A stretch of DNA of 64,000 nucleotides. Source: Solitalea lacus (lineage in GTDB: Bacteria; Bacteroidota; Bacteroidia; Sphingobacteriales; Sphingobacteriaceae). Shown here one piece after another: positions 2 through 18,600 of the stretch; positions within the stretch are counted from its first letter, which is position 1; every line of letters starts with the position of its first letter. Under the pieces are notes generated by a model. It worked only from the letters and a program-made list of their open reading frames with translations, was not told the origin of the DNA and did no database searches. Made by a program: the position numbers and the translations under genes. The stretch covers positions 1,536,200-1,600,199 of the forward strand of contig NZ_CP091740.1 of the NCBI RefSeq assembly GCF_022014595.1. The letters are read 5' to 3'.

Positions 2-889
2 AAAATTCAGGCTGTAAAAAAATCAATCACTGAAAAGAAGCCCGTAATAATCGGAATGCTTTGCCCTCCTTCGTTTCACTATGGAAGCGAAGTATGGAAT
101 CCAACAGAAGAGGTGGATTGGACTAAATATGGTGGCCATGCAATGTGTGTAGTAGGTTATGACGATGAAAAGTTTGGTGGCGCGGTAGAAGTTCAAAACA
201 GCTGGGGTAAAACCTGGGCTAATGAAGGCTATATATGGATCAAATATCAAGACTTCGCTAAATACACCAAATATGCTTATGAATTGGTGGATTTGCCTGA
301 GCCAAAGCCGGAGGTTGCTGATCTTTCCGGAAATATAAAATTTGTCTTGGCATCGGGCCAGGAAATGCCTGCAAATCTTCATATATCTACCCGGGGCTTA
401 ACCGTTGTGCCTGCAAAACCTGCAGCTGGGCCGTTAACGCTTTATCGCACTTCAGAATCATATATTTCTGGTACCCGTTTCAGAATTTTCATATCCAACA
501 ATGAGCCCGCATTTGTATACGCTTTCAGTACTGATCTAAGCAATGAAATAACCAAAATTTTTCCTTATGAGGATAATATTAGCGCAGCATTAACCGACAA
601 ACGCAATGACGTGGCCATCCCTGATGAAGATCATTTTATTGAATTTGACAATCGGCCTGGGACTGATTTTTTATGCGTTTTGTACAGTAGGGTAGAGTTG
701 AATATTAATGATTTGATTCAGAAGATAGGCACTCAGCAAGGAAGTTTTAGTGAAAAAATCTTTAAAGTGATGGGAGATAAAATGGTGGATCCTAAAAATA
801 TACAATTTTCCAAGGAAAAGATAGCATTTCAGGGTTTTAGTAAAGGGAAAAGTGTTGTTGCCATGATGGTTGAATTGGAACATAAATAA
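2..889 (+). CDS. Papain-like (C1A) cysteine peptidase, C-terminal part (5' end lies outside the window), fused to a C-terminal DUF4384-like beta-rich domain
   Basis: The reading frame is open back to nt 2, so the CDS is truncated by the window edge. The motifs HAMCVVGYDD (catalytic His region) and NSWGKTWANEGYIWIKY match the papain His and Asn-Ser-Trp-Gly signatures. The downstream segment GTRFRIFISNNEPAFVYAFSTDLSNEITKIFP fits the DUF4384 pattern (G-x-hydrophobic ... YhYhF..D..G.h.hLFP) that is often found fused to caspase-fold proteins. Confidence 0.7.
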   Translation, partial: KIQAVKKSITEKKPVIIGMLCPPSFHYGSEVWNPTEEVDWTKYGGHAMCVVGYDDEKFGGAVEVQNSWGKTWANEGYIWIKYQDFAKYTKYAYELVDLPEPKPEVADLSGNIKFVLASGQEMPANLHISTRGLTVVPAKPAAGPLTLYRTSESYISGTRFRIFISNNEPAFVYAFSTDLSNEITKIFPYEDNISAALTDKRNDVAIPDEDHFIEFDNRPGTDFLCVLYSRVELNINDLIQKIGTQQGSFSEKIFKVMGDKMVDPKNIQFSKEKIAFQGFSKGKSVVAMMVELEHK

Positions 890-911: not shown

Positions 912-3065
912 ATGAAAAAGTTATTTCTCCTAATGCTTATTCTTTACACTTGTTCAACAAGTGTTCTTTATGCCCAATCTAAAAAGTTAAAAGATTTAGC
1001 ATCTTATAAAAGTGCTTTAATATCCGCAAAACCCATGGAGAAAGCCGTAGTGGATAAAGATTTTATTCTGGCAGAGAAACTGTTTTTGCAATCGTTGGAC
1101 ATTTATCCTGTTTGGGCTATTGTTTACGATGACTTTATAAATGCTAAAGTGAACATTGGAGATATAAAAGGAGCAAACCTCTTGTGGGAAAAGGCTATTG
1201 CGATTTATAAAAAACACGATCAAATATTAGTATATAATCCTCCTTTATTTTCAACCTTTAATATTGCTAAAGGTTCGGATTATGATTACGTTCCCAGTTC
1301 TGAAAAGATAAAATCAATTTACTTGGACAGGGCCTACGCCAATGCCACTCATGGCGATATCAACCAAACAGTAAAGGATTATTTAACTGTAGAGAGCTCC
1401 ATTGGCTTAAATACAGAGAATTATAACTTTTTGGCAGTTTATGCAACACAAGCCGGTGATTTTGAAACAGCAAGAAGAAGTGTTGATACTTTAAAAAAGG
1501 TTTACGCCAACGGTAAAAGAAAGTTAATGGATGCCCAGTTGCAGCCCGTTTATACTGAAGCATTTTTATTACTTGCTATGGGGGAGTACGCTAAAGCGCT
1601 TCCTTTGGCCGAGCGGCTAGATAATGAAGATAAGGGGCTCAATACAACCTGGAAAGGGTTTGCCCGAATGATGAAAGCCGAAGCATACGCAGGTTTAGGT
1701 GATTTGGAAAATGCTCAAAAAGCTCTTGAACATGCTTTGAAACATCCTGTATTTGGAAAAAATACCGTTAATGTTCAATACACTACTGGCCTTGTAGCTT
1801 TGTTAGCAAAGGATTATGTAAAAGCAGCGGATGCATTTACTAAAGAGATCAATCATAAAGGCGCTTGGGGAAAGCATAGATTTTATACTCGAAGAGCAGA
1901 AGCACACATCGGTCTGAAAGACTACATAAAGGCAAAAAGTGATTATGAAACAGCTTTGTTATATCATCCTAGCTATGAACCGGCCATATTAGGTTTGGCT
2001 AATTTGGAGGGACGTGCTATTGCAGTTCGTAAAACTGATAAAACTCCTCCTACTATAAAACTGACCGAACCTTCTAATGCTCGCGGTCTGAAAATCACTG
2101 CATCAAGTAATGATATGATGGTAAAAGGCGTTGCTAGCGATTTATCAGGCATAAAAAGTGTAAGCATTAATGGTCAACCGGTATTTTCAAAAGAGCAGGG
2201 AGATTTTTGGGGTAGTGTCTCCTTAAAAGATGGAATTAACAAGGTAACAGTGAAAGCCATTGATATTGCAGGCAATATTGCCGAACAGATTTTTGAAATT
2301 GAAAAGCAAAATACACCGGTTGCAGTTAATGATGAAATTTTGCCAGTTGCAACGGTTGAAGCAAAAAATTATGCTCTAATCATTGCTGCACAGAATTACG
2401 AAGATTCATCTATTCCTTCACTCGAAAATCCGGTTTCGGATGCCATAAAACTAAAACTAATCATTAAGAACAATTACAGTTTTGCCGATGATAACATTTA
2501 TACGCTTTTTAATCCAGGGGTGAATGATTTTAAGAAAAAATTTGCCGAGATGCTGGAAGTTATCCGGCCGGATGATAACCTTATTATATTCTATGCAGGC
2601 CATGGCATTTGGGTAGAGAAGGAGAAAAAGGGATATTGGTTGCTTACCGATGCTAAACGAAATGATATTAACACATGGCTTTCCAATAAACTGGTGTTGG
2701 AGATGATCTCCAAAATCCCTTCACGTCACACGCTTTTAATTACAGATGCCTGTTTTTCGGGCTCTGTGTTCAAAACCCGAAGCATAGGAGCTGGTGCACC
2801 TGCTGCGATTCGGGAAATGAGCGAAAAGATCAGCCGTGTGGCGATCACTTCGGGCAATGACACCGAAGTGCCGGATCAATCTGTGTTTATGAAATACTTG
2901 GTTAAGGCACTTTCTGAAAATAAAGAAAAGTATTTAACAGCTCAGAAAATGTTCATTAATCAGATCATTGAAGCGGTGATGACTGAAACAAAAACTGAGC
3001 CTCGTTACGGTACCTTAGAAGCAGCCGGCCATGTGGGTGGGGATTATATTTTTATGAAGAAGTAA
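912..3065 (+). CDS. Secreted TPR-repeat / Ig-like / caspase-fold (peptidase C14) protein, paralog 1 of 4 (most divergent)
   Basis: The signal peptide MKKLFLLMLILYTCSTSVLYAQS starts at the internal Met at 912; the ORF track starts at 870. The N-terminal ~330 aa is TPR-like helical repeats. The middle domain PPTIKLTEPSNARGLKITASSNDMMVKG...VTVKAIDIAGN is Ig-like. The C-terminus carries the caspase His-Cys dyad motifs IIFYAGHGIW and LLITDACFSGSV. Confidence 0.8.
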   Translation: MKKLFLLMLILYTCSTSVLYAQSKKLKDLASYKSALISAKPMEKAVVDKDFILAEKLFLQSLDIYPVWAIVYDDFINAKVNIGDIKGANLLWEKAIAIYKKHDQILVYNPPLFSTFNIAKGSDYDYVPSSEKIKSIYLDRAYANATHGDINQTVKDYLTVESSIGLNTENYNFLAVYATQAGDFETARRSVDTLKKVYANGKRKLMDAQLQPVYTEAFLLLAMGEYAKALPLAERLDNEDKGLNTTWKGFARMMKAEAYAGLGDLENAQKALEHALKHPVFGKNTVNVQYTTGLVALLAKDYVKAADAFTKEINHKGAWGKHRFYTRRAEAHIGLKDYIKAKSDYETALLYHPSYEPAILGLANLEGRAIAVRKTDKTPPTIKLTEPSNARGLKITASSNDMMVKGVASDLSGIKSVSINGQPVFSKEQGDFWGSVSLKDGINKVTVKAIDIAGNIAEQIFEIEKQNTPVAVNDEILPVATVEAKNYALIIAAQNYEDSSIPSLENPVSDAIKLKLIIKNNYSFADDNIYTLFNPGVNDFKKKFAEMLEVIRPDDNLIIFYAGHGIWVEKEKKGYWLLTDAKRNDINTWLSNKLVLEMISKIPSRHTLLITDACFSGSVFKTRSIGAGAPAAIREMSEKISRVAITSGNDTEVPDQSVFMKYLVKALSENKEKYLTAQKMFINQIIEAVMTETKTEPRYGTLEAAGHVGGDYIFMKK

Positions 3066-3075
3066 ACTGCAAATT

Positions 3076-5151
3076 ATGAGAAAAATACTACTTACTCTAT
3101 TTTTTTTAATTTCCTTTTTGACTGTCTATTCACAGTCGATTCTCGCACCTTACGCAACTAATCAGGATTATAAATCCTATAATCAAGCTAAAAAACTCTG
3201 GAAAAATGGAGATTATGTTGAAGCTGAAAAGTTTTATAGAAAAGCTTATACAAATAGTGGTAATACTAGCTATTTAGCTGAATTAGGAAAAAAGAAATTT
3301 GAAATTGGAGATGCAAAGGGTGCCAATTCAGTTTATGATATTATCATTAAAGCTGAGAAAGAGAAATCTCAAATTTTTCGAACGACTTTGAATTTGTACT
3401 ATTATGAAAAGATAGATAACAACTTTAAAAAAGGAGATCCGGAGGTTGGGCTAGCTTCGACTCTTGAGTTTATGGAATCGTTGGGCGATAAGATCGGACT
3501 ATCAGAACGTAATCTTTTTCTACCTATATATACTTCGGCTGCTGAAACTGCCTTTGCCCTTGAAAATAAAGAAGCCCTCATAAAGCTTCATGATAAGGCT
3601 GCAAGTATAAAAAATGCTGATTACGGCGAGTTTTTAAGTTTCGTATATCTCAATCTGTTGAATAAGGACTATGAAAAGGTACTTAAAAGGGTTGAAGATG
3701 TACAAGTGAACGGCGGTTTTATGTCCTCAAAAACGGTTGCTAATAGTTTATTGCCAACTGTTTTTGCCCATATGGGAGAAAATGAGAAGGCGCTGGCAGC
3801 TATTGACAGGGCGAAAGGAAGTATTCTAATAGGAGAGGATTACTTTCATTATGTTTATGGATTAATAGCGCTTAATAAAAAAGATTATAAGGAAGCGATT
3901 GATCGTTTCTCTAAGGCCATAAAGGGTTATACGTTTATAGTTCGCATAGAGCCTGTAGGAAAATACAAGCATTATAGCAAAAGAGCCGAAGCCTATCTTG
4001 GCCTCGGTGATTTTATTCAAGCAAGAAAAGATTATGAGGCTGCATTGGTATACAACCCCGATTATGAACCTGCTTTAAATGGAATTGCAAAATTAGAAGG
4101 AAGAATGGTGCAGGATCGTAAAGCAGATAAAACACCTCCTGTTATTGCTGTTACTGAGCCTTCGGTAAATAGAGGGTTAAAGGTGACTGCTTCCGGAAAT
4201 GATATCATGGTAAAAGGAACCGCTATGGATCCTTCAGGTTTAAAAGCGGTAACCATTAACGGGCAAGCAGTGTATTCACAGGAGGCTGGAAGTTTTTGGG
4301 GCAATGCTGCTTTAAAAGCTGGTGCATCCAAAATTGTGATTGCCGCGACTGATATGGCTGGCAATACAGCTGAGTTTACTTTTGATATCGAAAAACCAAT
4401 AAATCCAGTTGCAGTTAATGACATTGTACCTATAGCAGAAAAAGAAGGCAGAAATTTCGCTGTTTTAATTGCTAGTCAAAATTATGACGACAGTTCAATT
4501 CCATCTTTGGAAAACCCTATTTCGGATGCGGTGAAATTGAAACTGATCCTTAAAAACAGTTATAATTTTACTGACGAGAATATCATCACTCTATTTAACC
4601 CTGAACGATCTGATTTTAAAAAACAGTTTTTGCACTTAACGGAGATGATTCAACCGGAAGATAACCTGATCATTTTTTATGCCGGCCACGGTATTTGGGT
4701 GGATAAAGAGAAGAAGGGGTATTGGTTGCTGACAGATGCCAAACGAAATGATGTAAACACATGGCTGCCGAACAAGGAGGTTTTAAATATGATTTCCGGA
4801 CTCTCTTCCCGCCATACATTATTGATTACCGATGCATGTTTCTCGGGATCAGTATTCAAAACACGGAGTATTGGAGCCGATGCGCCTGCAGCAGTAAAGG
4901 AAATGAGTCAAAAGATCAGCCGTGTGGCCATTACTTCGGGCAATGATACAGAAGTGCCAGATGAATCGGTATTTATGAAATACCTGGTTAAAGCTTTGTC
5001 TGAAAATAAAGATAAATACCTCACTGCGCAGAAAATGTTCATCACTCAAATCATTGAAGCGGTGATGACCGAAACCAAAACAGAACCTCGTTATGGAACG
5101 CTTGAAGCAGCCGGCCATGTTGGTGGAGATTTTATTTTTATGAAGAGGTAA
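3076..5151 (+). CDS. Secreted TPR / Ig-like / caspase-fold (C14) protein, paralog 2
   Basis: Signal peptide MRKILLTLFFLISFLTVYSQS, TPR region, Ig-like domain, YAGHG and DACFSG motifs. The C-terminal ~330 aa is about 90% identical to paralogs 3 and 4. There is a 10-bp intergenic gap to the upstream gene. Confidence 0.8.
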   Translation: MRKILLTLFFLISFLTVYSQSILAPYATNQDYKSYNQAKKLWKNGDYVEAEKFYRKAYTNSGNTSYLAELGKKKFEIGDAKGANSVYDIIIKAEKEKSQIFRTTLNLYYYEKIDNNFKKGDPEVGLASTLEFMESLGDKIGLSERNLFLPIYTSAAETAFALENKEALIKLHDKAASIKNADYGEFLSFVYLNLLNKDYEKVLKRVEDVQVNGGFMSSKTVANSLLPTVFAHMGENEKALAAIDRAKGSILIGEDYFHYVYGLIALNKKDYKEAIDRFSKAIKGYTFIVRIEPVGKYKHYSKRAEAYLGLGDFIQARKDYEAALVYNPDYEPALNGIAKLEGRMVQDRKADKTPPVIAVTEPSVNRGLKVTASGNDIMVKGTAMDPSGLKAVTINGQAVYSQEAGSFWGNAALKAGASKIVIAATDMAGNTAEFTFDIEKPINPVAVNDIVPIAEKEGRNFAVLIASQNYDDSSIPSLENPISDAVKLKLILKNSYNFTDENIITLFNPERSDFKKQFLHLTEMIQPEDNLIIFYAGHGIWVDKEKKGYWLLTDAKRNDVNTWLPNKEVLNMISGLSSRHTLLITDACFSGSVFKTRSIGADAPAAVKEMSQKISRVAITSGNDTEVPDESVFMKYLVKALSENKDKYLTAQKMFITQIIEAVMTETKTEPRYGTLEAAGHVGGDFIFMKR

Positions 5152-5163
5152 ACTGTAATAATT

Positions 5164-7260
5164 ATGAGAAAAATACTGCTTACTCTATTACTTTTAATTT
5201 CAGTTTCGATTGTCTATTCACAGTCGATTCTCTCACCTTACTCAACTAATCAGGATTATAAATCATATAGTCAAGCCCAAAAACTCTGGAAAAATGGAGA
5301 TTATGTTGAAGCTGAAAAGTTTTATAAAAAAGCTTATACCAATAGTGGGAATGTTTCGTACTTATGGACATTAGCAAAAAATAAATTCGAAATCGGTGAT
5401 GTAAAGGGTGGCAATTCGGTTTATGACATCATCATTAAAGATAAAACTGAATACGTAAAGGGGAAGCCTCAAATTTTCCGAACGAATCATTTAAATCCGT
5501 TTTATTTTGAAAAGATAGATAACAACTTTAAAAAAGGTGATCCGGAGGTGGGTTTGGCCTCGTCTCTTGAGTTTGTTGAAACAATGGGGGATAGGATTGG
5601 ATTTACTGAAAGTAATTTCTTTGTAGTTGTATATACCTCGGCAACTGAGACTGCCTTTGCTCTGGATAATAAAGAAGCCCTCAAAAAATTGCATGAGAAA
5701 GCTGCAAGTGTAAAAAATGGCGAATACGGTGAATTTTTAAGTTTTGTATATCTCAATATATTGAATAAAGATTACGAAAAGGTTCTCAAAAGAATTGAAG
5801 ACGTACAAACGAATGGTGGCGGTTTTACGAACTCTAAATTAGTTGCCAGAAGCTTATTGCCAACTCTTTATGCTCATATGGGAGAAAATGAGAAGGCTTT
5901 GGCTGCCATAGACAGAGCGAAAGAAAGTATACTATTAGGAGAAGATTACTTTCACTATGTTTATGGGTTAATCGCGCTCAATAAAAAAGATTATAAGGAA
6001 GCGATTGATCGATTCACAAAGGCGATAAAAGGTCGCATGTTTTTAGTTCACAGGATAGAGCCTGCAGGAAAATTTAAACATTATACTAAAAGAGCAGAAG
6101 CTTATGAAGGGCTTGGTGATTTGATACAAGCAAGAAAGGACTATGAAGCTGCATTAACGTATAATCCGGATTACGAACCGGCTTTAAATGGAATTGCAAA
6201 ATTAGAAGGAAGGATGGTGCAAGATCGTAAAGCAGATAAAAATCCTCCTGTAATTACAGTGACTGAACCTTCTGTAAACCGAGGATTAAAAGTGACCGCT
6301 TCCGGAAATGATATCATGGTAAAGGGTACCGCTATAGATCCTTCGGGTTTAAAAGCGGTAACCATTAACGGACAAGCTGCATATTCACAAGAAGCTGGAA
6401 ATTTTTGGGGGAATGTTGCTTTAAAAGAAGGATCATCCAAAATCGTGATTGCTGCAACGGATATGGCCGGCAATACAGCAGAGTATACTTTTGATATCGA
6501 AAAGCCAATATCTCCGGTAGCGGTTAATGACATTGTCCCCGTAAAAGAAAAAGAAGGAAGAAATTTCGCGGTTTTAATTGCCAGTCAAAATTATGACGAC
6601 AGTTCAATTCCATCTTTGGAAAACCCTATTGCTGATGCTGTAAAATTGAAATTGATCCTCAAAAACAGTTATAATTTTATTGACGAGAATATCATCACCC
6701 TGTTTAATCCGGGCCGAGCTGACTTTAAGAAACAGTTTTTACTGCTATCTGAAATCATTCAGCCTGAAGACAATTTGATCATTTTCTATGCCGGTCACGG
6801 TATTTGGGTGGATAAAGAAAAGAAAGGATATTGGTTATTGACGGACGCACAGCGAAGTGATGTAAATACGTGGCTACCTAACAAGGAGGTTTTAAATATG
6901 ATTGCCGGCCTTCCCTCACGCCATACATTGTTGATTACCGATGCATGTTTTTCTGGCTCAGTATTCAAAACACGGAGCATTGGAGCCGATGCACCTGCAG
7001 CTGTAAGGGAAATGAGCCAAAGGATTAGCCGTGTTGCCATTACTTCGGGTAATGATACGGAAGTGCCTGATCAATCAGTATTCATGAAATACCTGGTTAA
7101 AGCCTTGTCTGAAAATAAAGATAAATACCTCACCGCGCAGAAAATGTTCATTACTCAAATTATTGAAGCAGTCATGACCGAAACGAAAACCGAACCTCGT
7201 TATGGCACTTTAGAGGCAGCCGGACATGTGGGCGGAGATTTTATTTTTACAAAGAAGTAA
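5164..7260 (+). CDS. Secreted TPR / Ig-like / caspase-fold (C14) protein, paralog 3
   Basis: Same architecture. The catalytic His codon is at 6796-6798 (FYAGHG) and the Cys codon at 6937-6939 (DACFSG). There is a 12-bp gap to the upstream gene. Confidence 0.8.
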   Translation: MRKILLTLLLLISVSIVYSQSILSPYSTNQDYKSYSQAQKLWKNGDYVEAEKFYKKAYTNSGNVSYLWTLAKNKFEIGDVKGGNSVYDIIIKDKTEYVKGKPQIFRTNHLNPFYFEKIDNNFKKGDPEVGLASSLEFVETMGDRIGFTESNFFVVVYTSATETAFALDNKEALKKLHEKAASVKNGEYGEFLSFVYLNILNKDYEKVLKRIEDVQTNGGGFTNSKLVARSLLPTLYAHMGENEKALAAIDRAKESILLGEDYFHYVYGLIALNKKDYKEAIDRFTKAIKGRMFLVHRIEPAGKFKHYTKRAEAYEGLGDLIQARKDYEAALTYNPDYEPALNGIAKLEGRMVQDRKADKNPPVITVTEPSVNRGLKVTASGNDIMVKGTAIDPSGLKAVTINGQAAYSQEAGNFWGNVALKEGSSKIVIAATDMAGNTAEYTFDIEKPISPVAVNDIVPVKEKEGRNFAVLIASQNYDDSSIPSLENPIADAVKLKLILKNSYNFIDENIITLFNPGRADFKKQFLLLSEIIQPEDNLIIFYAGHGIWVDKEKKGYWLLTDAQRSDVNTWLPNKEVLNMIAGLPSRHTLLITDACFSGSVFKTRSIGADAPAAVREMSQRISRVAITSGNDTEVPDQSVFMKYLVKALSENKDKYLTAQKMFITQIIEAVMTETKTEPRYGTLEAAGHVGGDFIFTKK

Positions 7261-7272
7261 ACTGCAATAATT

Positions 7273-9360
7273 ATGAGAAAAATACTACTAACTCTAATAC
7301 TTTCAATATCTGTTTCGATTGTCTATTCACAGTCGATTTTCTCAAATCCTGGTTTTGATACCCAAACCTATAATCAAGCTGAAAAACTTTGGAAAAATGG
7401 AGATTATGTTGAAGCTGAAAAGCATTATAGAAAGGCTTATTCAAATACCGGAAACGTGTCGTATTTATGGACATTAGCAAAAAAGAAATTCGAAATCGGT
7501 GATGTAAAGGGGGCCAATTCGGTTTATGATATCCTCATTAAAGATCAAACTGAATACGTTAAAGGGAAACCCCAATTTTCCAGAACGACTTTAAATCTAT
7601 ACTATTATGAGAAAATAGATAACAACTTTAAAAAGGGTAATCCGGAGGTCGGATTATCAACTGCTTTGGAGTTTGTTGAGTCTATGGGTGAAAAGGTTAC
7701 GGAATCTGAACGAACATACTTTCAGAGTATTTATTATAATGCTTGTGAGACAGCATTTGCCCTTGATGATGAAAAAGCTCTGGTAAAATTACATGAGAAA
7801 GCTTCGGGAGTAAAAAACGGAGAATATGGTGAGTTCTTAAGCTTTGTTTATTTGAACTTGGTTCGAAAAGACTATACAAAGGCACTTGAAAAAATCGAGA
7901 ACGTTTTAGAAAAAGGTGGTGGGTTTATGTTCTCTAAAATGGTGGCAAAAAGTTTATTGCCAGTTGTTTATACTCAAATGGGAGAAAATGAAAAAGCGCT
8001 GGAAGCAATAAAACAATCAACGTCAAGTGTTTTAGTTGGTGAGGACTACTATAATTATCATTATGGGTTAATTGCCTTAAATCAAAAAAAATACCAAGAA
8101 GCGATCGATCGGTTTAACAAAGCTATTAAAGGTTATATGGTTCTGTATTTAAGAGTCGAACCAGTGGGGAAATATAAGCACTATACTAAAAGAGCAGAAG
8201 CTTATGAAGGGCTTGGTGATTTAATCCAGGCAAGAAAGGACTATGAAGCTGCATTAACGTATAATCCGGATTACGAGCCTGCTTTAAATGGAATTGCAAA
8301 ATTAGAAGGAAGGATGGTGCAAGATCGTAAAGCAGATAAAAATCCTCCCGTAATTACAGTGACTGAACCTTCTGTAAACCGAGGATTAAAAGTGACTGCT
8401 TCCGGAAATGATATCATGGTAAAGGGTACCGCTATAGATCCTTCGGGTTTAAAAGCGGTAACCATTAACGGACAAGCTGCGTATTCACAGGAAGCTGGAA
8501 ATTTTTGGGGGAATGTTGCTTTAAAAGAAGGATCTTCCAAAATCGTGATTGCTGCAACGGATATGGCCGGCAATACAGCTGATTATACTTTTGATATTGA
8601 AAAGCCAATAACTCCGGTAGCGGTTAATGATATTGTCCCTGTAAAAGAAAAAGAAGGAAGAAATTTCGCGGTTTTAATTGCCAGTCAAAATTATGACGAC
8701 AGTTCAATTCCATCTTTGGAAAACCCTATTGCTGATGCTGTAAAATTGAAATTGATCCTCAAAAACAGTTATAATTTTATTGACGAGAATATCATCACCC
8801 TGTTTAATCCGGGCCGCTCTGACTTTAAGAAACAGTTTTTACTGCTATCTGAGATCATTCAGCCTGAAGACAACCTGATCATTTTCTATGCCGGTCATGG
8901 TATTTGGGTAGATAAAGAAAAGAAAGGATATTGGTTGTTGACAGACGCCACTCGAAATGATGTAAATACGTGGCTACCTAACAAGGAGGTTTTAAATATG
9001 ATTGCCGGACTTCCTTCACGCCATACATTGTTGATTACCGATGCATGTTTCTCTGGTTCAGTATTCAAAACACGGAGCATTGGAGCCGATGCACCAGCAG
9101 CTGTGCGGGAAATGAGCCAAAGGATCAGTCGTGTTGCCATTACCTCGGGTAATGATACGGAGGTGCCTGATCAATCAGTATTCATGAAATACCTGGTTAA
9201 AGCCTTGTCTGAAAATAAAGATAAATACCTCACCGCGCAGAAAATGTTCATCACTCAAATTATTGAAGCGGTCATGACCGAAACGAAAACAGAACCTCGT
9301 TATGGAACGCTTGAAGCTGCCGGACATGTGGGTGGAGATTTTATTTTTACGAAGAAATGA
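7273..9360 (+). CDS. Secreted TPR / Ig-like / caspase-fold (C14) protein, paralog 4
   Basis: Same architecture. The 3' ~1.08 kb (about 8281-9360) is about 97% identical at the nucleotide level to 6181-7260 of paralog 3. The N-terminal TPR half is diverged. Confidence 0.8.
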   Translation: MRKILLTLILSISVSIVYSQSIFSNPGFDTQTYNQAEKLWKNGDYVEAEKHYRKAYSNTGNVSYLWTLAKKKFEIGDVKGANSVYDILIKDQTEYVKGKPQFSRTTLNLYYYEKIDNNFKKGNPEVGLSTALEFVESMGEKVTESERTYFQSIYYNACETAFALDDEKALVKLHEKASGVKNGEYGEFLSFVYLNLVRKDYTKALEKIENVLEKGGGFMFSKMVAKSLLPVVYTQMGENEKALEAIKQSTSSVLVGEDYYNYHYGLIALNQKKYQEAIDRFNKAIKGYMVLYLRVEPVGKYKHYTKRAEAYEGLGDLIQARKDYEAALTYNPDYEPALNGIAKLEGRMVQDRKADKNPPVITVTEPSVNRGLKVTASGNDIMVKGTAIDPSGLKAVTINGQAAYSQEAGNFWGNVALKEGSSKIVIAATDMAGNTADYTFDIEKPITPVAVNDIVPVKEKEGRNFAVLIASQNYDDSSIPSLENPIADAVKLKLILKNSYNFIDENIITLFNPGRSDFKKQFLLLSEIIQPEDNLIIFYAGHGIWVDKEKKGYWLLTDATRNDVNTWLPNKEVLNMIAGLPSRHTLLITDACFSGSVFKTRSIGADAPAAVREMSQRISRVAITSGNDTEVPDQSVFMKYLVKALSENKDKYLTAQKMFITQIIEAVMTETKTEPRYGTLEAAGHVGGDFIFTKK

Positions 9361-10538
9361 GAAATTGGATAAAATGGCTGATTAGTTTTGGGCATGCAAT
9401 TGTCTTGCTTGTACTTACTGCTTTTTGGCTAAATACAGACTTTAGTTATGGCGATGAGCAATTACTTGTAAAATGGTCATCTATTCTTAAACGAGTGGTC
9501 TTCAATATAGATGAAGACCCTCCTAAAGAAGATTATTTATTTATCAATTTGGCTTATGAAAAGGCATTAATTCCAAGAGAAGAAGGACTGGGGAATGAAG
9601 TAATTACTGACAGGGTAAAGCTTGCACAGTTTTTTGAAATTCTTAAACGGAATCAGAAGTCGGTTAAATTTACAGTCTGTGATGTATTTCTTAAAGGAAA
9701 ATCAGAAAGTGATAGCTTGCTTCAAAGTAGTATTTCTGGAATCAAGAATATTGTTTTTCCAACGCATCACGGCGAGGATGGAAAGCCTGAAGAACTTGAT
9801 TTGAATGTTCCTCATGCTATTGCTGATTATAGAATGGCAAGCGGAGGATTCCTGAAATTCAAGCTTTTTCAGGACGATAATCTTTCCACCATTCCGGTTT
9901 ATTTATATGAAAAAACCAAAGGCCGTAAAATTGATCATCAAAACGGACTCTATTTCGACAACGGAAAATTGAGTTTAAATTCTACTATAATTGATTATCA
10001 AATACGCAGTCATGAACTATTTGAGCAAGGTGAATATCCGGTGGTTAACCTTTCAGAACTTCTTATGCTTCCGGAAGATGTAATTGTGAATGAATTTTTA
10101 AAGAACCGAATTGTATTGATTGGAGATTTTAACAATGATGTACATGAAACAATTTTTGGTTCTACACCGGGCACGCTCATACTTCTCAATGTTTATTTGA
10201 CACTTAAGGCGGGATATCACTTTGTAACTTACTGGTGGGTTGTTTTTATGCTTATGGCATATACCATTTTCTCAAGATTAATGCTTTTTCCCGAAAATGA
10301 TTCAGAAAAAATCAAAAAAATAAACTGGATCGGCCCACTTTTAGGAAGCGCAACTTATCTTTCTGTTCTTTCTGTAGCCTCTTATTTAATGTTTAATATT
10401 CATCTTCAAGTCTTGATATTAACTTTATATATTACTCTTCTCCGATACATCATTCGACTTAATCAAGTTGAGTGGAGTAAGGATCAGTTAAAAGAATGGG
10501 CATTAGCTCTACGTGAAACTTATTTTAATTTTAAATAA
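9357..10538 (+). CDS. Stand-alone CHASE2-like extracytoplasmic sensor domain membrane protein (no output domain)
   Basis: The start ATG overlaps the upstream stop (ATGA). Topology is an N-terminal TM (WLISFGHAIVLLVLTAFWL), then a ~270-aa extracytoplasmic region, then 3 C-terminal TMs, then a ~30-aa cytoplasmic tail. The segment NRIVLIGDFNNDVHETIFGSTPGTLILLNVYLTL resembles the conserved CHASE2 core (D.x.TP.G..PG..h.A). Confidence 0.5.
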   Translation: MRNWIKWLISFGHAIVLLVLTAFWLNTDFSYGDEQLLVKWSSILKRVVFNIDEDPPKEDYLFINLAYEKALIPREEGLGNEVITDRVKLAQFFEILKRNQKSVKFTVCDVFLKGKSESDSLLQSSISGIKNIVFPTHHGEDGKPEELDLNVPHAIADYRMASGGFLKFKLFQDDNLSTIPVYLYEKTKGRKIDHQNGLYFDNGKLSLNSTIIDYQIRSHELFEQGEYPVVNLSELLMLPEDVIVNEFLKNRIVLIGDFNNDVHETIFGSTPGTLILLNVYLTLKAGYHFVTYWWVVFMLMAYTIFSRLMLFPENDSEKIKKINWIGPLLGSATYLSVLSVASYLMFNIHLQVLILTLYITLLRYIIRLNQVEWSKDQLKEWALALRETYFNFK

Positions 10539-11359
10539 TGATGGGAAACTTACTTGCAATTTTATTATGGATTTTAATGGCTTTTTTGCCAGCTGAAAAA
10601 TATTATGTCACGTTTATAAAGGGGACTGTTCTTTTAGAGCGCACAAAAAAACAGGTTAAAATTGGAGATGCGCTAGAACCAGAAGATAAGCTTGTGTTTA
10701 GTGATAAAAACGCAAAGATTTCTTGCATAAGCCCATCAAAAGGTAGATTTGATATTAGTGCTCTATCTGCTAAGGCAGGCAGCAAAGGAGAGTTATTAGC
10801 TGTTTTACGCTCAAGCCTTATTCCAGCCACCGGAACCTATCATTTAAGTACACGCTCTTTATCCGATCAGAATGTGGATCCGGAAGCCTATTTTAAAACC
10901 GGTACTGATGATCGTTTTTTAATTGTCGAAAACGAGTGGATTCCTGTAAATGATATATACTCAACTAAGGGTGGGAATTTTTTCTTTCTTCAATATACAA
11001 TCAATGGAAAAACTGTATTGAAGAAATTACCAAAACAAGAGAATGCTATTGCTTTTAACAAGAGTCTTTTTGTTGATGAAAGTGGGGGTATATTAAATTC
11101 CGATAATTACGTTAACACTATGCTTTGTTTTCAAGAGAGCACCAACGGAGTCCCTAAGTCAAAAACTGTAGCAAAGTTTATCCCTGTTATAGTTGATAAA
11201 GCTGAAATACTCGCTGAATTAGCAGTGCTTCGTAATAATTTACAAAACCTTTATCCTAATAATGAAAAAGCAGTAAAGACGGAGCTATATGCTCATCTTG
11301 CTGCAAATTATGGTACAATAAATCAAAATTTATTTGAAGATTTGATGCACAGTAAATAA
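10538..11359 (+). CDS. Secreted or membrane-anchored protein with an N-terminal FecR-like beta domain
   Basis: The start overlaps the upstream stop (TAATG). N-terminal hydrophobic signal/anchor LLAILLWILMAFLPA. The segment VTFIKGTVLLERTKKQVKIGDALEPEDKLVFSDKNAKISCISPSKGRFDI matches the FecR fold pattern (GxV......G..L..GD.L...D.L.T...A...L.F.DGS). Confidence 0.4.
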   Translation: MMGNLLAILLWILMAFLPAEKYYVTFIKGTVLLERTKKQVKIGDALEPEDKLVFSDKNAKISCISPSKGRFDISALSAKAGSKGELLAVLRSSLIPATGTYHLSTRSLSDQNVDPEAYFKTGTDDRFLIVENEWIPVNDIYSTKGGNFFFLQYTINGKTVLKKLPKQENAIAFNKSLFVDESGGILNSDNYVNTMLCFQESTNGVPKSKTVAKFIPVIVDKAEILAELAVLRNNLQNLYPNNEKAVKTELYAHLAANYGTINQNLFEDLMHSK

Positions 11360-11436
11360 TTATTCTGCCTTTGGATTGAAACCAATAAATGATGCAGATT
11401 AGGGTGGAGAATGCATATAAAAATTTGCAATAGCAA

Positions 11437-11472
11437 CAAAAGGATTTGAATTACAAATCCTTTTGTCTTTTA
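11437..11472 (+). terminator. Rho-independent terminator ending the protease/CHASE2/FecR operon
   Basis: Perfect 12-bp inverted repeat caaaaggatttg / caaatccttttg with a 5-nt loop, followed by tcttttat. Confidence 0.55.
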
Positions 11473-11686: not shown

Positions 11687-13078
11687 ATGAAAAAAAACAT
11701 CTTTTTAACCTTTTTTGTGCTTATTAGTTTTGCATCCCTGGGTCAGCAAAAATCTGTTATTACAGGGAAAATTACCAACCCACAAGCTGGGATTTCTGAA
11801 ATAAAATTCAAATACCTTTATGATTTTCGAAATTTTCGGAAGAATGCGGATGCGAAAATTTACAAAGTAGATGAGAAAGGAAATTTTAAAATTGAAGAAA
11901 ACCTTTCCGAACTAGTATTTGTGCAATTTGAATATGGAGATTGGGGTAATACTTTACTGTTAGAGCCAGGCGCTAATGCAACAATGTCATTTGATTCAAA
12001 ATCTAAAGATAAGGACAAATTATACAAAATTAATGGTAGAGGAGCAGTAGGTTGCCAATTTTTAGAAGCTATTTTTTATTCTGATACTACCATAAGTAAA
12101 TCCAAAGATTTTAGTAAAGCTTTTACAAAAATCGACGAATTGGGAAAACAAGCCCAGGAAGGATTAAATACTAAGTATTCAAAAGTGCTTTCTTCTGCCG
12201 CCATTACTCATTTGAAAGAAGAGCTTTATTATTTTACTTATCTCACCAAGTTGCAATTAATAACAAAAGACAGGGAAAATATTAACCAGATTTATAGCGG
12301 AAAGGCTCCAGAATATGTTGTTGAGTTCATTAAGGACCTTCCCTTTAAAGATGCCAAACTTAATAACTTTGGATTTTACCTTCTTTATAACAATGGATTA
12401 CATTTGAGATTTGCATTGGAGCAAGAAGATTATAATGTTAGGCAGTATAATGTTATTAATAAAGTGCTTCCACCTGTATTAGCAGAAAAGGAATCTGTTA
12501 GTGTAATTAATCGACTAATTGAAAATGGAGATTTCCTAATTGCTGACAAACTTATCAAGGATTTAAGTCAACGATTCCCAGCATCTGATAATCAAAAATC
12601 ATTTGATGAAAAAATTGCCGAAACAAAAAAATTGTTGTTCAACCTTGCTCCCGGCAAAAATGCACCAGCATTTATTTTGAAAAACTTGAATGGCAAGGAA
12701 GTTTCATTAAGCGATTTTAAAGATAAAGTTATATACCTTGATTTTTGGGCAAGCTGGTGTGGGCCATGCAGAGGGGAAATGCCTTATGCTAAAAGAATCA
12801 AAGAAAAATATAAGGACAATAAGGATGTTGTATTTCTTTATGTTTCTATAGATGAAAAGGAAGATGCTTGGAAAAAAGGTATTGAGGAAAATAAGATTGA
12901 GGGCGTTCATTTAATTAGCAATGGATTTTTCAGTGATGTTCCTAAGAAATACATGGTGAATGGTATACCCCGGTACTATTTGATTGGAAAAGGCGGAGAG
13001 ATTATCTCAAATGAAGCACCTCGCCCAAGCTCTGAAGAGCAGTTGACGACGATGATAGATAAAGCCCTTAAGAATTAA
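11687..13078 (+). CDS. TlpA/ResA-family periplasmic thiol:disulfide oxidoreductase with a long N-terminal domain
   Basis: Signal peptide. Thioredoxin-fold motif FWASWCGPCRGEMP in the C-terminal domain. Confidence 0.8.
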   Translation: MKKNIFLTFFVLISFASLGQQKSVITGKITNPQAGISEIKFKYLYDFRNFRKNADAKIYKVDEKGNFKIEENLSELVFVQFEYGDWGNTLLLEPGANATMSFDSKSKDKDKLYKINGRGAVGCQFLEAIFYSDTTISKSKDFSKAFTKIDELGKQAQEGLNTKYSKVLSSAAITHLKEELYYFTYLTKLQLITKDRENINQIYSGKAPEYVVEFIKDLPFKDAKLNNFGFYLLYNNGLHLRFALEQEDYNVRQYNVINKVLPPVLAEKESVSVINRLIENGDFLIADKLIKDLSQRFPASDNQKSFDEKIAETKKLLFNLAPGKNAPAFILKNLNGKEVSLSDFKDKVIYLDFWASWCGPCRGEMPYAKRIKEKYKDNKDVVFLYVSIDEKEDAWKKGIEENKIEGVHLISNGFFSDVPKKYMVNGIPRYYLIGKGGEIISNEAPRPSSEEQLTTMIDKALKN

Positions 13079-13332: not shown

Positions 13333-14829
13333 TTATAAATGCTTTGAAATTTGTTCAAACAATAATTCTTTTTGGCTAGGTCGATAGGCTTTTTTTTCGG
13401 CAATATTCCCTTGTTTATCTATAATTATATAAGTGGGTACACTGTAACCATTGCCATCCCAAATAAGCTTATTGATATCATTTTGTAACTCTTTATTCGC
13501 TCTAACATGAGTGCCCTCTAACTCATAGTATTTAATCATTTCTTTCCATCGCGTATCGTATTTGTCTTCATCAATGGAAATATACAGCATGGTAACATCC
13601 TTTTCATTCAGGAATTTCTTCAATTCTTTAGTGTATTGGAATTCAGCTTTGCATGGTCCACACCATGTGGCCCAGGTGTCAATTAAAATAGTTTTGCCTT
13701 TAAATTGATCAGTAAGCTCTTTTAGTGTGTTTATTTGGCTATACTTTGATCCAATTTTCTCGCCGCTTGCATATTTGGCTTTTGCTTTGATTTGAAAAGC
13801 AATAACATCCTCTATTAATGGTTGAATTAAAGGAGCGTATTTGCTGTAGGGGAATTGTCTTTTGAAATCGTTAAATAATTCAATTAATGCCGATTGGTAA
13901 AGTTTGCTATTGGCATCTGAATAAATTATATTGGCTAGAGCATACTCTGCAGCGTGGTCTTTAAATTCAGAATTAATAGTGTTTCCGATTCTTTTTAAAT
14001 CGTCATTTTCACGTTCACTAGGCGGGTTCTGACCTGATTTTTTAATTAGATAATGCTTATATTTTACCAGATAGGTATAATAATAATCAAACACCCAAAG
14101 CATTTGAGTGGCGCTAAAGCTGTTTGGTGGGTATAGTTGATAGGTTTTGTGCCACAAAGCTTCAAAATCAGAAGGTAAGGAACTTTGATAAAGCTTATGG
14201 TTTTTAGGTAATTCCTGTTTTCTAAATTGATGTACTATTGCATAAGCGGTAATCCCAGCAAAGTAATAATTAGTTGATATTTTTAAATAGTTAAAAAAAG
14301 TGGTATCTATTTGAAATTGATTAAATAGTTTTTCTTCCTCAGCAAAGGTGCTTAAACGTCTGCGATTGATTTTTTCTTCCACATCAACAGCAGCGCTATC
14401 AGTCAAGTATTGATAGCCTTCATACATTATGGGAGATACGTACCTTCCTTTAGGCAAGAAGTTCTCTGTTAAAAAATGTTGTCCGGTGGCGTTACTGCCT
14501 TCGAATTGCCAAGGATTGGTTTTATTAGCGGTATCCAAACTTATTTTTATTGAGTTGCCTTTTTGTACATACAAGAAGGCTTTTTTGTCCAATACCTTTA
14601 TTGTTATCGGGCCGGTTTCATCTTCTTTAAGTGGAATTGATAAGGTTCCCGAATTTGAGATTTTTGCATGTCTTTCGTTGCCCGCAAAATAATTATGATT
14701 AATAGGTATGCTTATAGTTACATCATCGTTTTTAGCATTTCTGACATTCAATTCAATTGTTGCGATTTGCGCATGTGCTACTGTATACGCACAGGTAAAC
14801 AATATAAAACTCAGTAGGAGTTGTCTCAT
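13333..14829 (-). CDS. TlpA/ResA-family periplasmic thiol:disulfide oxidoreductase (second paralog, convergent)
   Basis: Signal peptide MRQLLLSFILFTCAYTVAHAQ. C-terminal motif WATWCGPCKAEF. Confidence 0.8.
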   Translation of the reverse strand: MRQLLLSFILFTCAYTVAHAQIATIELNVRNAKNDDVTISIPINHNYFAGNERHAKISNSGTLSIPLKEDETGPITIKVLDKKAFLYVQKGNSIKISLDTANKTNPWQFEGSNATGQHFLTENFLPKGRYVSPIMYEGYQYLTDSAAVDVEEKINRRRLSTFAEEEKLFNQFQIDTTFFNYLKISTNYYFAGITAYAIVHQFRKQELPKNHKLYQSSLPSDFEALWHKTYQLYPPNSFSATQMLWVFDYYYTYLVKYKHYLIKKSGQNPPSERENDDLKRIGNTINSEFKDHAAEYALANIIYSDANSKLYQSALIELFNDFKRQFPYSKYAPLIQPLIEDVIAFQIKAKAKYASGEKIGSKYSQINTLKELTDQFKGKTILIDTWATWCGPCKAEFQYTKELKKFLNEKDVTMLYISIDEDKYDTRWKEMIKYYELEGTHVRANKELQNDINKLIWDGNGYSVPTYIIIDKQGNIAEKKAYRPSQKELLFEQISKHL

Positions 14830-15658: not shown

Positions 15659-18600
15659 ATGCCTGAATTCAGTCACCTGCACGTACATACTCAGTTTTCC
15701 CTGCTCGATGGAGCTGCGGATATCTCCAAGCTTTTTAAAAAGGCGGCCAATGACGGCATGCGCGCTCTTGCCATTACCGACCATGGTAACATGTTCGGCG
15801 TGTTCAAGTTCGTTGCCGAAGCCGGTAAGCATGATAACAAGGTAAAACCGATTGTTGGTTGTGAGTTCTATGTAGTGGCCGATCGTCATGAAAAGAAGTT
15901 TTCCAAAGAGAAAAAAGATAAGCGCTATCACCAGTTGTTCCTTGCCAAAAACGCCAATGGCTATAAGAATCTTACCAAGCTTTGTTCGTATGGATACATG
16001 GAGGGGTTATACAGTAAGTGGCCTCGTATTGATAAGGAATTGATTTTAAAATATCATGAAGACCTTATTGCTACTACCTGTTGTATTGGGGCTTCGGTTC
16101 CGCAGGCCATTTTAAATGAGGGCGAAGAAGCAGCAGAAAAGGAATTTAAATGGTGGTTGGATATTTTCGGTGAAGATTATTATATCGAACTGCAGCGCCA
16201 TAATCTGCCCGAACAAGTAAAAGTGAACGAAGTGCTTCTTCGCTTTGCTAAAAAATACAATGTAAAGGTGATTGCATCCAATGATTCGCACTATGTGGAT
16301 CAGGCAGATGCCAATGCCCATGATATTTTGCTGTGTATTAACACCGGTGATATTCAGTCGACTCCAATTGCAACGGATGAGGAAGGTGGTAAAGGTTATC
16401 GTTTTGGTTTCCCTAACGACCAGTTCTTCTTCAAAACTCAGGCAGAGATGAATGCCTTGTTTCATGACATTCCGGAAGCAATTGATAATACCAATGAGAT
16501 TGTCGATAAGGTTGACCTGCTGAAACTAAAGCAAGACATTTTGCTTCCGAACTTCCCAATTCCACCGGGCTTTGTCGATCAGATGCAATATCTGGAGCAT
16601 ATTACCTGGGAAGGAGCAAGGGCACGGTATGGAGATGACCTGACACCGGATAAGGAAGAACGTATCAATTTTGAGCTGCATACCATTCGTACAATGGGAT
16701 TTGCCGGTTACTTCCTTATCGTATCCGATTTCATTAAGGCCGGACGCGATATGGGCGTATTCATTGGTCCGGGCCGTGGTTCAGCTGCGGGTTCAGCCGT
16801 GGCTTATTGTATCGGTATCACCAATATTGACCCGATTAAATACAATCTCCTGTTTGAGCGTTTCCTGAATCCCGATCGTAAGTCAATGCCCGATATTGAT
16901 ACGGACTTCGACGACGAGGGCCGTCAGCGCGTGATTGATTATGTGGTTGATAAATATGGCAAGACACAGGTAGCACAAATCATTACCTACGGCTCCATGG
17001 CCGCCAAGATGAGTATCAAAGACGTGGCTCGTGCCTTGGATTTACCTTTGCCCGATTCGAATGCCATGGCCAAACTCGTACCTGATAAGCCTGGTATTTC
17101 TTTGGATAGGGTGATGAACGCCCCTATCGATGGGGATAAATCACTGAAAGATAAAGAGGGACTTGGTCCTGAAGATATAGAGAACGTGAAGCAGCTTCGC
17201 GAAATTCGTGAAGGATCTGATCTTCGTTCTAAAGTAATTAAGGAAGCCCTGATTTTGGAGGGTTCTATCCGCGGAACAGGTATCCACGCAGCGGGTATCA
17301 TCATTGCCCCAGAAGATTTAACGAATATCGTTCCCGTAGCAGTAGCCAAAGATTCTGATCTGTTGGTTACGCAGTACGAGGGAAAGGTAATTGAAGATGC
17401 CGGCGTAATCAAGATGGACTTTTTGGGTTTGAAGACCCTTACCATTATCCGTGATGCGTTGCGTATGATCAAGGAAAATCATGGAGTAGAATTCGATATT
17501 GATTATATCCCGTTGGATGATCAGAAGACCTTTGAGCTTTACCAACGTGGCGAAACCAATGGTACGTTCCAGTTTGAGAGTCCGGGTATGCAGAAATACC
17601 TGAAAGATCTGGTGCCCGATAAGTTCGAAGACTTGATTGCCATGAACGCCCTGTATCGTCCGGGACCGATCGAGTACATTCCCGACTTTATTGAGCGTAA
17701 ACATGGACGTAAAGCGGTAGAATATGACTTGGCCGACATGGAGGAATACCTCTTCGATACCTATGGGATTACCGTTTATCAGGAGCAGGTGATGTTGCTT
17801 TCGCAGAAACTTGCCAACTTTACCAAAGGTGATGCCGACGTGCTGCGTAAAGCGATGGGTAAAAAAGACCGTAAAACGTTGGATAAACTGAAACCGCAGT
17901 TTATTGATAATGCCAAAGAAAAAGGGCATGATGCCAAAGTGTTAGAAAAAGTTTGGACTGACTGGGAGGCCTTTGCATCTTACGCGTTCAATAAATCGCA
18001 CTCCACCTGCTATGCATTCGTTGCCTATCAAACTGCTTACTTAAAAGCGCATTATCCGGCTGAATATATGGCTTCGGTATTAACTCATACCAAAGGACAG
18101 ATTGATAAGATCACTTTCTTCATGGAAGAGTGTAAACGTATCGGTGTGCCAGTTTTGGGTCCTGATGTGAATGAAAGTGCGCTTCACTTTACTGCAACTA
18201 AGAAAGGGCAGATTCGTTTCGGTTTGTCGGGTATTAAAGGTTTGGGTGAAGCGGCCATTGAGAGTTTGGTGACCGAACGTAAAGAGAATGGTCCTTATGA
18301 ATCGGTTTATGATTTTGCCAGAAGAGTGAATTTACGTGCGGTTAATAAGAAATCATGGGAGAATTTAGTGTATTCAGGAGCTTTCGATTGCTATGGAGAG
18401 TACCATCGTGCACAATACTTTGGTGTAAACATTTCGGATCGATTAAATGGTATTGAACGCCTGGTGAAATACGGAAACGATTTCGTTGCCAACCAAAACA
18501 GCGCTCAGAACTCATTGTTTGGAGGGACGGCGGATGCCCATGTGCCGGAACCACCACTTCCGGATTCGGAAGAGTGGAGTTTGTTGCAGAAGTTGAGTTT

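Follow-up and report, generated by a model that had tools for sequence, protein, structure and literature searches.

A CHASE2-family membrane protein without an output domain in a cassette of exported caspase-fold proteases in Solitalea lacus and other Bacteroidota

Introduction

CHASE2 sensors are built from one N-terminal transmembrane (TM) helix, an extracytoplasmic domain of about 250–300 aa and three further TM helices. In the canonical members of the family (PF05226), which include histidine kinases, class III adenylate/guanylate cyclases such as CyaD1, CyaD2 and CyaK of Sinorhizobium meliloti, GGDEF/EAL proteins and Ser/Thr kinases, this membrane module is joined to an output domain and is found in two-component or cyclic-nucleotide contexts. 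Here we describe a CHASE2-like protein of 393 aa, encoded by an open reading frame (ORF) at positions 9357..10538 (+) of a 64,000-nucleotide stretch of the Solitalea lacus genome (hereafter the window, to which coordinates refer unless a locus is named), which departs from this scheme. The S. lacus protein shares with the canonical sensors the layout of TM1, a ~260-aa domain and three TM helices, a match to PF05226 and the ...GDFxxDxHxT...PG...LN... core, and it has output-bearing relatives within its own clade. In contrast to the canonical sensors, however, it ends in a tail of 23 aa, its cytoplasmic parts are unconserved and it is encoded in a cassette of exported proteases, next to an exported protein of 273 aa, here termed DS270, whose family is uncharacterised. 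Protein-coupled sensing by CHASE2 domains has a precedent, because the CHASE2 cyclases of Sinorhizobium meliloti respond to a protein signal via an outer-membrane partner (PMC13001267).

An association between CHASE2 and caspase-fold proteases has been reported in the form of fusion proteins, namely the metacaspase-CHASE2 protein of Trichodesmium erythraeum and the EACC2-caspase-CHASE2 proteins of bacterial TRADD-N systems (PMC3501461, PMC2853523, PMC8195603). Like the S. lacus system, these fusions couple a 1+3 TM CHASE2 module to the caspase fold and lack a kinase or cyclase. Their caspase domain, however, lies N-terminal to TM1 and is hence cytoplasmic, so that CHASE2 senses the exterior on behalf of an internal protease, whereas the proteases of S. 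lacus are separate, signal-peptide-bearing proteins that are predicted to share the periplasm with the CHASE2 domain. Cassettes of the S. lacus type also differ from the fusions in their protease copy number, from one to five or more, and in encoding DS270 and a C1 peptidase as well.

Two further systems bear a partial resemblance to the S. lacus locus. The Burkholderia 'BiofilmReg' operon encodes a FecR/LysM protein and a CHASE2 histidine kinase (PMC5192318), and thus also places a CHASE2 membrane protein beside a small exported periplasmic partner; that partner has Pfam-recognisable LysM and FecR domains and the kinase has a cognate response regulator, whereas the S. lacus partner shows no FecR signal and neither a kinase nor a regulator accompanies it. 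In turn, a 2012 survey of prokaryotic metacaspases documented multi-metacaspase operons in Bacteroidetes (PMC3501461), which share with S. lacus the presence of several C14 genes, TPR or WD40 domains and hydrophobic N-terminal segments interpreted as signal peptides; the CHASE2-like/DS270 pair and the C1-DUF4384 protein were not described there as constant components. A literature search returned no description of the cassette reported here, and nothing on CHASE2 with CHAT proteins or on periplasmic metacaspases in Bacteroidetes. The CHASE2 domain and its link to caspases are already known; the output-less form accompanied by periplasmic proteases, a DS270 partner and a C1-DUF4384 protease appears to be new in description.

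Results

A search with PF05226 matches the 393-aa protein over aa 84–298 with an E-value of 1.3e-5 and 25.3 bits, 1 bit short of the gathering cut-off of 26.3 bits, and a search of the protein against NCBIfam yields no match. At the family level the assignment is solid. PF05226 is matched by 17 of 30 homologues (43–83% identical; best E-value 3.2e-9), and a database protein that is 100% identical to the S. lacus sequence (P0001) carries both a precomputed PF05226.17 match and the NCBI name 'CHASE2 domain-containing protein'. Furthermore, two output-bearing relatives from the same clade exceed the cut-off (P0193, 27.7 bits; P0222, 29.1 bits), and the core quoted above is also present in the cyclase- and kinase-bearing relatives. 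Judged by its sequence, the ORF at 9357..10538 is a genuine but divergent CHASE2-family inner-membrane protein; its likeness to CHASE2 had been noted by an earlier reading made from the window's sequence alone (the sequence-only reading).

Hydropathy analysis (Kyte-Doolittle segments at aa 4–27, 293–311 and 337–368) and an AlphaFold2 model computed from 30 homologues (predicted local distance difference test [pLDDT] 83.7; predicted template-modelling score [pTM] 0.82) agree on a layout of TM1, a ~260-aa extracytoplasmic domain, three TM helices and a 23-aa tail. The model places helices at aa 3–25, 292–310, 325–346 and 352–370, with an alpha/beta domain between the first and the second, and the predicted topology is that of canonical 1+3 TM CHASE2 proteins, in accordance with the sequence-only reading. 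TM1 (aa 8–25; 9378..9431) is preceded by the basic residues R2 and K6, which under the positive-inside rule fit a cytoplasmic N-terminus. It is followed by the predicted periplasmic CHASE2 domain (aa 26–288; 9432..10220), delimited on the basis of the Pfam match, residue conservation and the modelled alpha/beta fold. Within this domain lies the core motif NRIVLIGDFNNDVHETIFGSTPGTLILLNVYLTL (aa 250–283; 10104..10205), which the sequence-only reading had singled out. In the three-helix TM bundle (aa 289–310, 325–346 and 352–370; 10221..10466), a short cytoplasmic loop that is not conserved joins TM2 to TM3, and the predicted cytoplasmic tail (10467..10535) comprises one short helix and no domain.

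No Pfam or NCBIfam domain is found in the 23 aa that follow TM4, and the short form is conserved across the clade, so that the absence of a cytoplasmic output domain noted by the sequence-only reading stands. That reading had also raised, and seen no sign of, a frameshift hiding a junction with a downstream signalling domain. Such a frameshift is excluded because the TAA stop codon of the CHASE2-like gene overlaps the ATG of the downstream gene (TAATG), because the homologues retrieved in a search of 5.8 billion proteins, about 130 in number, are almost all 370–420 aa long, and because the next gene belongs to a separate conserved family. A family profile was then built from the CHASE2-like homologues and searched against 1.84 billion representative proteins clustered at 50% identity, where it matched 1035 clusters at E ≤ 1e-3 and 876 at E ≤ 1e-10. 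Among the top 150 clusters, 142 are shorter than 510 aa, most of them 350–450 aa, and the other eight (576–700 aa) consist of two cyclases (P0134 and P0222, with Guanylate_cyc outputs at E about 1e-49), two kinases (P0193 and P0253, both with HATPase_c and the former additionally with HisKA), two DS270-like fusions and two proteins (P0205 and P0219) with long acidic low-complexity inserts, made of D/E/G/T-rich repeats, within the periplasmic domain. On these cluster counts, members of this CHASE2 clade, which is large and no rarity, normally lack an output domain. The claim of the sequence-only reading that CHASE2 almost invariably occurs in fusion with an output domain was hence overstated, the output-less clade alone accounting for the 876 clusters at E ≤ 1e-10.

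The distribution of conserved residues was analyzed in 130 diverse output-less representatives aligned to the family hidden Markov model (HMM). Of the 20 positions conserved at ≥85%, 19 are periplasmic, comprising E34, F62, G79, R86, L89, D109, D119, L122, K167 and P180 as well as a C-terminal group formed by G256, F258, D261, H263, T265, G268, G272, N278 and L281; the sole position outside the periplasm is Y358, in TM4. Seven of these residues (G256, D261, H263, T265, G268, G272 and N278), each conserved at ≥86%, fall within the core motif. Mean conservation amounts to 0.43 in the ectodomain and 0.34–0.40 in the TM helices, dropping to 0.21 in the cytoplasmic loop and to 0.06 in the tail, the length of which ranges across the family from 5 to 61 aa (median 16.5). 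Because conservation sits in the ectodomain, and the loop and tail are unconserved, this pattern argues that the CHASE2-like protein would work in the periplasm and the membrane, and not via a conserved cytoplasmic contact, a distribution that fits the periplasmic rather than cytoplasmic action put forward by the sequence-only reading. A catalytic or redox role was also considered for Cys108, which is invariant in the close clade, and was rejected on account of its falling below the ≥70% conservation level in the wider family.

The gene encoding DS270 (10538..11359, +) begins with an ATG that overlaps the TAA of the CHASE2-like gene by one base, and its product starts with a hydrophobic signal or anchor segment. 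All 85 homologues of DS270 are annotated as 'hypothetical', and none carries a precomputed Pfam domain. The downstream gene had been called FecR-like in the sequence-only reading, a designation that finds no backing here: none of 21 family members matches FecR at E ≤ 1, no FecR signal emerges among the 85 homologues, and a PDB profile search with the family is empty. In its AlphaFold2 model (pLDDT 82.7), DS270 comprises an N-terminal helix, two beta domains (aa 22–89 and aa 126–219) separated by a loop (aa 99–112), and three C-terminal helices. The loop, predicted to be flexible, is the only segment of the model with pLDDT below 50, and it contains the invariant residues L103-S104-T105-R106 (10844..10855, +), which are retained in distant DS270 homologues as [ST][ST]R[SGA].

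The cassette caspases, for their part, carry the sequence 'TDACFSG', in which an Asp lies two positions N-terminal to the catalytic Cys. In metacaspases and orthocaspases, an Asp at this site (-2) goes together with specificity for Arg or Lys at P1. Given the invariant motif in a low-confidence loop and the Asp at -2 in the caspases, the Arg loop of DS270 is a candidate cleavage or docking site for these proteases.

Two of the long CHASE2-like proteins identified above, P0195 and P0238 (loci L051 and L054), consist of a CHASE2-like protein followed by an extra hydrophobic segment and a DS270-like C-terminal region of ~270 aa, which is colinear with the DS270 profile over 236–237 columns (hhalign E-values 2.7e-5 and 7.4e-5; probabilities 74% and 62%). 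With the extra TM segment, the DS270-like domain would lie next to the CHASE2 ectodomain on the periplasmic side, and the fusions provide moderate Rosetta-stone evidence that the CHASE2-like protein and DS270 may act together. The hydrophobic segment in both fusions keeps a signal-peptidase-like '...A-x-A-Q' end, and the fused domain might be cleaved off.

In S. lacus, the CHASE2-like gene is preceded by five protease genes on the same strand. The first encodes a papain-type peptidase, of which the window contains the 3' part (2..889, +), with a Pfam DUF4384 domain and the C-terminal portion of Peptidase_C1; a local C1-DUF4384 HMM, built from full-length homologues, matches it with E 7e-173. 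In a full-length homologue from S. koreensis (L018:6246-7709), both a signal peptide and the Cys, His and Asn motifs of the catalytic site are present. The next four genes (912..3065, 3076..5151, 5164..7260 and 7273..9360, all +) are caspase paralogues that share an architecture of signal peptide, TPR repeats, an Ig-like domain (of the Glucodextran_B type) and Peptidase_C14, as defined by Pfam, hydropathy and motifs. PF00656 (Peptidase C14) scores above its cut-off in the paralogues, with E-values of 1e-10 to 1e-11, the 'AGHG' and 'DACxSG' catalytic motifs are intact in all four, and Sec-type signal peptides are predicted in all four. The TGA of the fourth paralogue overlaps the ATG of the CHASE2-like gene (ATGA), in keeping with the translational coupling to secreted caspase-fold proteases noted by the sequence-only reading, and the overlapping stop and start codons support the co-transcription of the CHASE2-like gene with the exported caspase-fold proteases. 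A terminator-like hairpin followed by a T-run (11436..11466, +), downstream of DS270, probably marks the end of the operon.

The four caspase paralogues differ in how far their two halves have diverged. Their TPR halves share 31–81% amino acid identity and their Ig and caspase halves 74–98.5%, and the last ~1 kb of copies 3 and 4 is 92–99% identical at the DNA level. Only one caspase copy is present in each of the sister species S. koreensis and S. agri, and the S. lacus array would therefore represent a recent expansion with diversifying recognition domains, in which gene conversion has possibly taken part.

To determine how widely this arrangement is distributed, 185,579 species genomes were scanned, which yielded 42 loci; the neighbors in these loci were identified with local HMMs, counting C14 genes within 10 kb. 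All of them belong to Bacteroidota, save for one from a Desulfobacterales metagenome-assembled genome (MAG), and the cassette that they define is composed of a C1 peptidase-DUF4384 gene, genes for exported caspase-fold proteases with repeat domains (one to five or more), the CHASE2-like gene and DS270. DS270 lies directly adjacent to the CHASE2-like gene in 36 of the 42 loci, a C14 gene, in one to five or more copies, is found within 10 kb in 33, and C1-DUF4384 is present in 15. Three Bacteroidales loci without a match to the local HMMs, in which Pfam identified C14 or CHAT, raise the total with a caspase-fold neighbor to 36 of 42. In two of these a TPR-CHAT gene lies directly upstream of the CHASE2-like gene (L045:2-673 in L045; L047:89-3109 in L047), and in the third the upstream position is taken by a WG-repeat-Ig-C14 gene (L046:2784-4793) plus C1-DUF4384. 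A WD40-C14 protein is found at L043 (L043:12029-15703) and at the locus of the fusion protein P0238. In Daejeonella rubra, in a Ferruginibacter MAG and in a JGI contig, the C1-DUF4384, repeat-Ig-C14 and CHASE2-like genes and a gene for a ~270-aa protein sit between unrelated flanks, and in distant loci the gene order is permuted with the CHASE2-like/DS270 pair still together. The co-occurrence of output-less CHASE2 proteins with C14 peptidases, for which the sequence-only reading had called for a survey, is hence systematic. Its association with proteases stands, although that reading missed the tightest partner, which is DS270, adjacent to the CHASE2-like gene in most loci and fused to it in two relatives.

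Several observations qualify or extend the survey. Among distant relatives, the protease partner varies in repeat type and caspase-fold family but is still paired with an output-less CHASE2-like gene. Of the six loci in which no caspase gene was detected, four (L027, L035, L040 and L048) are on contigs of 2.5–8.5 kb with an upstream flank of ~200–1300 nt. In the Desulfobacterales MAG, two neighboring ORFs together make up the CHASE2-like gene (L048:266-1398), a split that may reflect a frameshift, pseudogenization or an assembly error. In the three Bacteroidales loci, a ~210-aa exported protein whose gene overlaps the 3' end of the CHASE2-like gene occupies the position of DS270 (L045:1894-2517, L046:7541-8185 and L047:4336-4959), and the L047 protein keeps an 'LSTR' string. 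Homology of these proteins to DS270 was considered and set aside as weak or absent, with hhalign E-values of 0.0025 (probability 12%) and 0.042, and they are taken as positional analogues only. Lastly, a search of viral contigs returned no relatives of the cassette, and PADLOC-DB 2.0 yielded no match for the CHASE2-like or C1 proteins, a generic 'caspase' match for the caspases (E 1e-5 to 1e-7) and a weak, probably spurious Csn2 match for DS270 (E 0.0012).

Discussion

We favor, with a probability of about one half, a reading in which a membrane module made up of the CHASE2-like protein and DS270 faces the periplasm and either docks or gates the exported proteases or is itself switched by them. 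DS270, which is exported, rich in beta structure and equipped with a helical bundle at its C-terminus, and the CHASE2-like protein are a constant pair, which would constitute the membrane module of a self-contained cassette. A CHASE2/DS270 complex would then serve as a periplasmic, membrane-anchored receptor or docking platform that may position the proteases, gate them or be switched by them, and the ...[ST][ST]R-[SGA]... loop of DS270 would be the probable point of proteolytic contact. Such a model supposes that the CHASE2-like protein and DS270 physically interact, that the pair contacts the proteases and that cleavage may occur at the Arg motif; its physiological role could be sought either in envelope surveillance and defense or in protein processing. 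The scaffold or receptor regulating periplasmic proteases that the sequence-only reading had suggested is compatible with all the data.

A number of points weigh against this interpretation. Co-location with protease genes would fit just as well with a pair that serves the proteases as substrate or effector, and the fusions were recognized through moderate hhalign scores (probability 62–74%). Two loci with long flanks, L008 and L039, encode the CHASE2/DS270 pair and no detected caspase gene, and therefore the pair can exist without a linked protease. Likewise, the cyclase-bearing relatives P0134 and P0222 stand alone, without proteases, and the CHASE2 domain is therefore not intrinsically protease-dependent. 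The '...ETYFNFK' end of the tail, which is conserved solely in the close clade, leaves room for a cytoplasmic contact, and a PDB profile search with the CHASE2-like family returned no meaningful match, nor is there a PDB fold match that could provide a clue to the binding partner.

The observations on the pair and on its proteases can also be merged into a more ambitious proposal, which as a whole we consider unlikely. The CHASE2-like/DS270 pair would be a periplasmic control platform in which the TPR, WD40 or WG caspases sense an envelope trigger and cleave DS270 at [ST][ST]R-[SGA], an event that the CHASE2 ectodomain would then read at the membrane. By extension, CHASE2 might generally be a protease- or protein-coupled receptor instead of a small-molecule sensor, and the output-less form of Bacteroidota a stripped-down version that acts wholly outside the cytoplasm, for instance in envelope defense or programmed lysis.

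Other explanations assign the protein a different role. It has already been mentioned that the single-sequence Pfam score lies 1 bit under the gathering cut-off, as might be expected if the ORF were the pseudogene remnant of a decayed or truncated CHASE2 kinase or cyclase sensor, or if its likeness to CHASE2 were due to chance. The conservation data effectively refute this possibility: more than 130 full-length homologues of equal length exist at 43–83% identity, the profile matches 876 clusters at E ≤ 1e-10, 39 columns are invariant among 30 homologues, CHASE2 matches reach 3.2e-9 at the family level, the AlphaFold2 model is confident and the stop codon overlapping the next gene is conserved. 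An intact protein could still be a transmembrane transducer, which would sense a ligand or a protease product and relay the signal either laterally, from its TM bundle to a membrane kinase or cyclase encoded elsewhere, or by way of its C-terminal helix to a partner in the cytoplasm. The existence of relatives with cyclase or histidine-kinase outputs in the same clade is in line with this idea, as are the conserved polar residues in the TM helices (Y358, 90%; S306, 83%; S339, 73%) and the tail motif of the close clade; moreover, a small C14 gene lies directly upstream of the kinase-bearing P0193, making a path from protease to CHASE2 to cytoplasm plausible in relatives. The cytoplasmic loop and tail, on the other hand, are the least conserved parts of the protein family-wide (0.21 and 0.06), with tails of 5–61 aa and a median of 16.5, and no conserved cytoplasmic or signaling gene is linked in any cassette, the flanks varying by genome, so that transduction to the cytoplasm seems improbable.

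The pair may, alternatively, be the target or effector of the proteases, with the caspases cleaving DS270 at its Arg loop, or the CHASE2 ectodomain, and thereby releasing a fragment or activating a membrane-perturbing, four-TM effector in a form of envelope suicide or defense. The invariant [ST][ST]R[SGA] in a flexible DS270 loop and the Asp at -2 of the caspases, with its link to Arg/Lys specificity at P1, speak in favor of such a system, and the combination of fast-diverging TPR halves (31–81%) with homogenized catalytic halves (74–98.5%) is a pattern typical of conflict systems. Against it stand the lack of a PADLOC defense-model match for the CHASE2-like and C1 proteins (the Csn2 match of DS270, at E 0.0012, being weak and probably spurious), the absence of the cassette from viral contigs, the lack of any compositional sign of a mobile island and a TM bundle without likeness to known pore formers, and this scenario is accordingly judged quite unlikely. 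An origin of the cassette in a defense island or phage was rejected on similar grounds, there being no PADLOC system match, no viral-contig relatives and a cassette GC content (37.3%) close to that of its surroundings (36.7%).

An output-less clade with a strongly conserved ectodomain, a regular exported partner and, in nearly all cases, exported caspase-fold proteases encoded nearby offers a tractable route to what CHASE2 ectodomains bind, and the periplasmic caspase homologues of Bacteroidota appear as part of an organized, membrane-linked system. If cleavage at the Arg loop proved true, DS270 would be a concrete substrate for bacterial C14 proteases. The cassette provides a concrete, testable handle on both CHASE2 ectodomains and bacterial periplasmic caspases, and no current view is overturned by it.

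Genomic Surroundings of the S. lacus Cassette

The left edge of the window cuts the Peptidase_C1-DUF4384 gene, and the start of the operon and its promoter therefore lie outside the window. For the first caspase paralogue, the start codon in the ORF list is a TTG at 870; the ATG at 912 is likelier, yielding a typical signal peptide, MKKLFLLMLILYTCSTSVLYAQS. The caspases score 57.6 and 62.6 bits against NCBIfam NF047832 (EACC1-associated caspase conflict systems), well under the cut-off of 140, which amounts to general caspase similarity. No second copy of any cassette component occurs elsewhere in the window, the remainder of which has the GC content of 36.7% given above. Downstream of the cassette lie two convergent genes for TlpA/ResA-like thioredoxin-fold proteins (11687..13078, + and 13333..14829, -), with N-terminal extensions of ~320–360 aa that have no Pfam match; a functional link between the cassette and these adjoining genes was considered and set aside, since the flanks differ in other genomes. 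The gene for DnaE, the alpha subunit of DNA polymerase III (15659..19216, +), follows 4 kb downstream, placing the cassette in the core chromosome, with a GC content like that of its surroundings.

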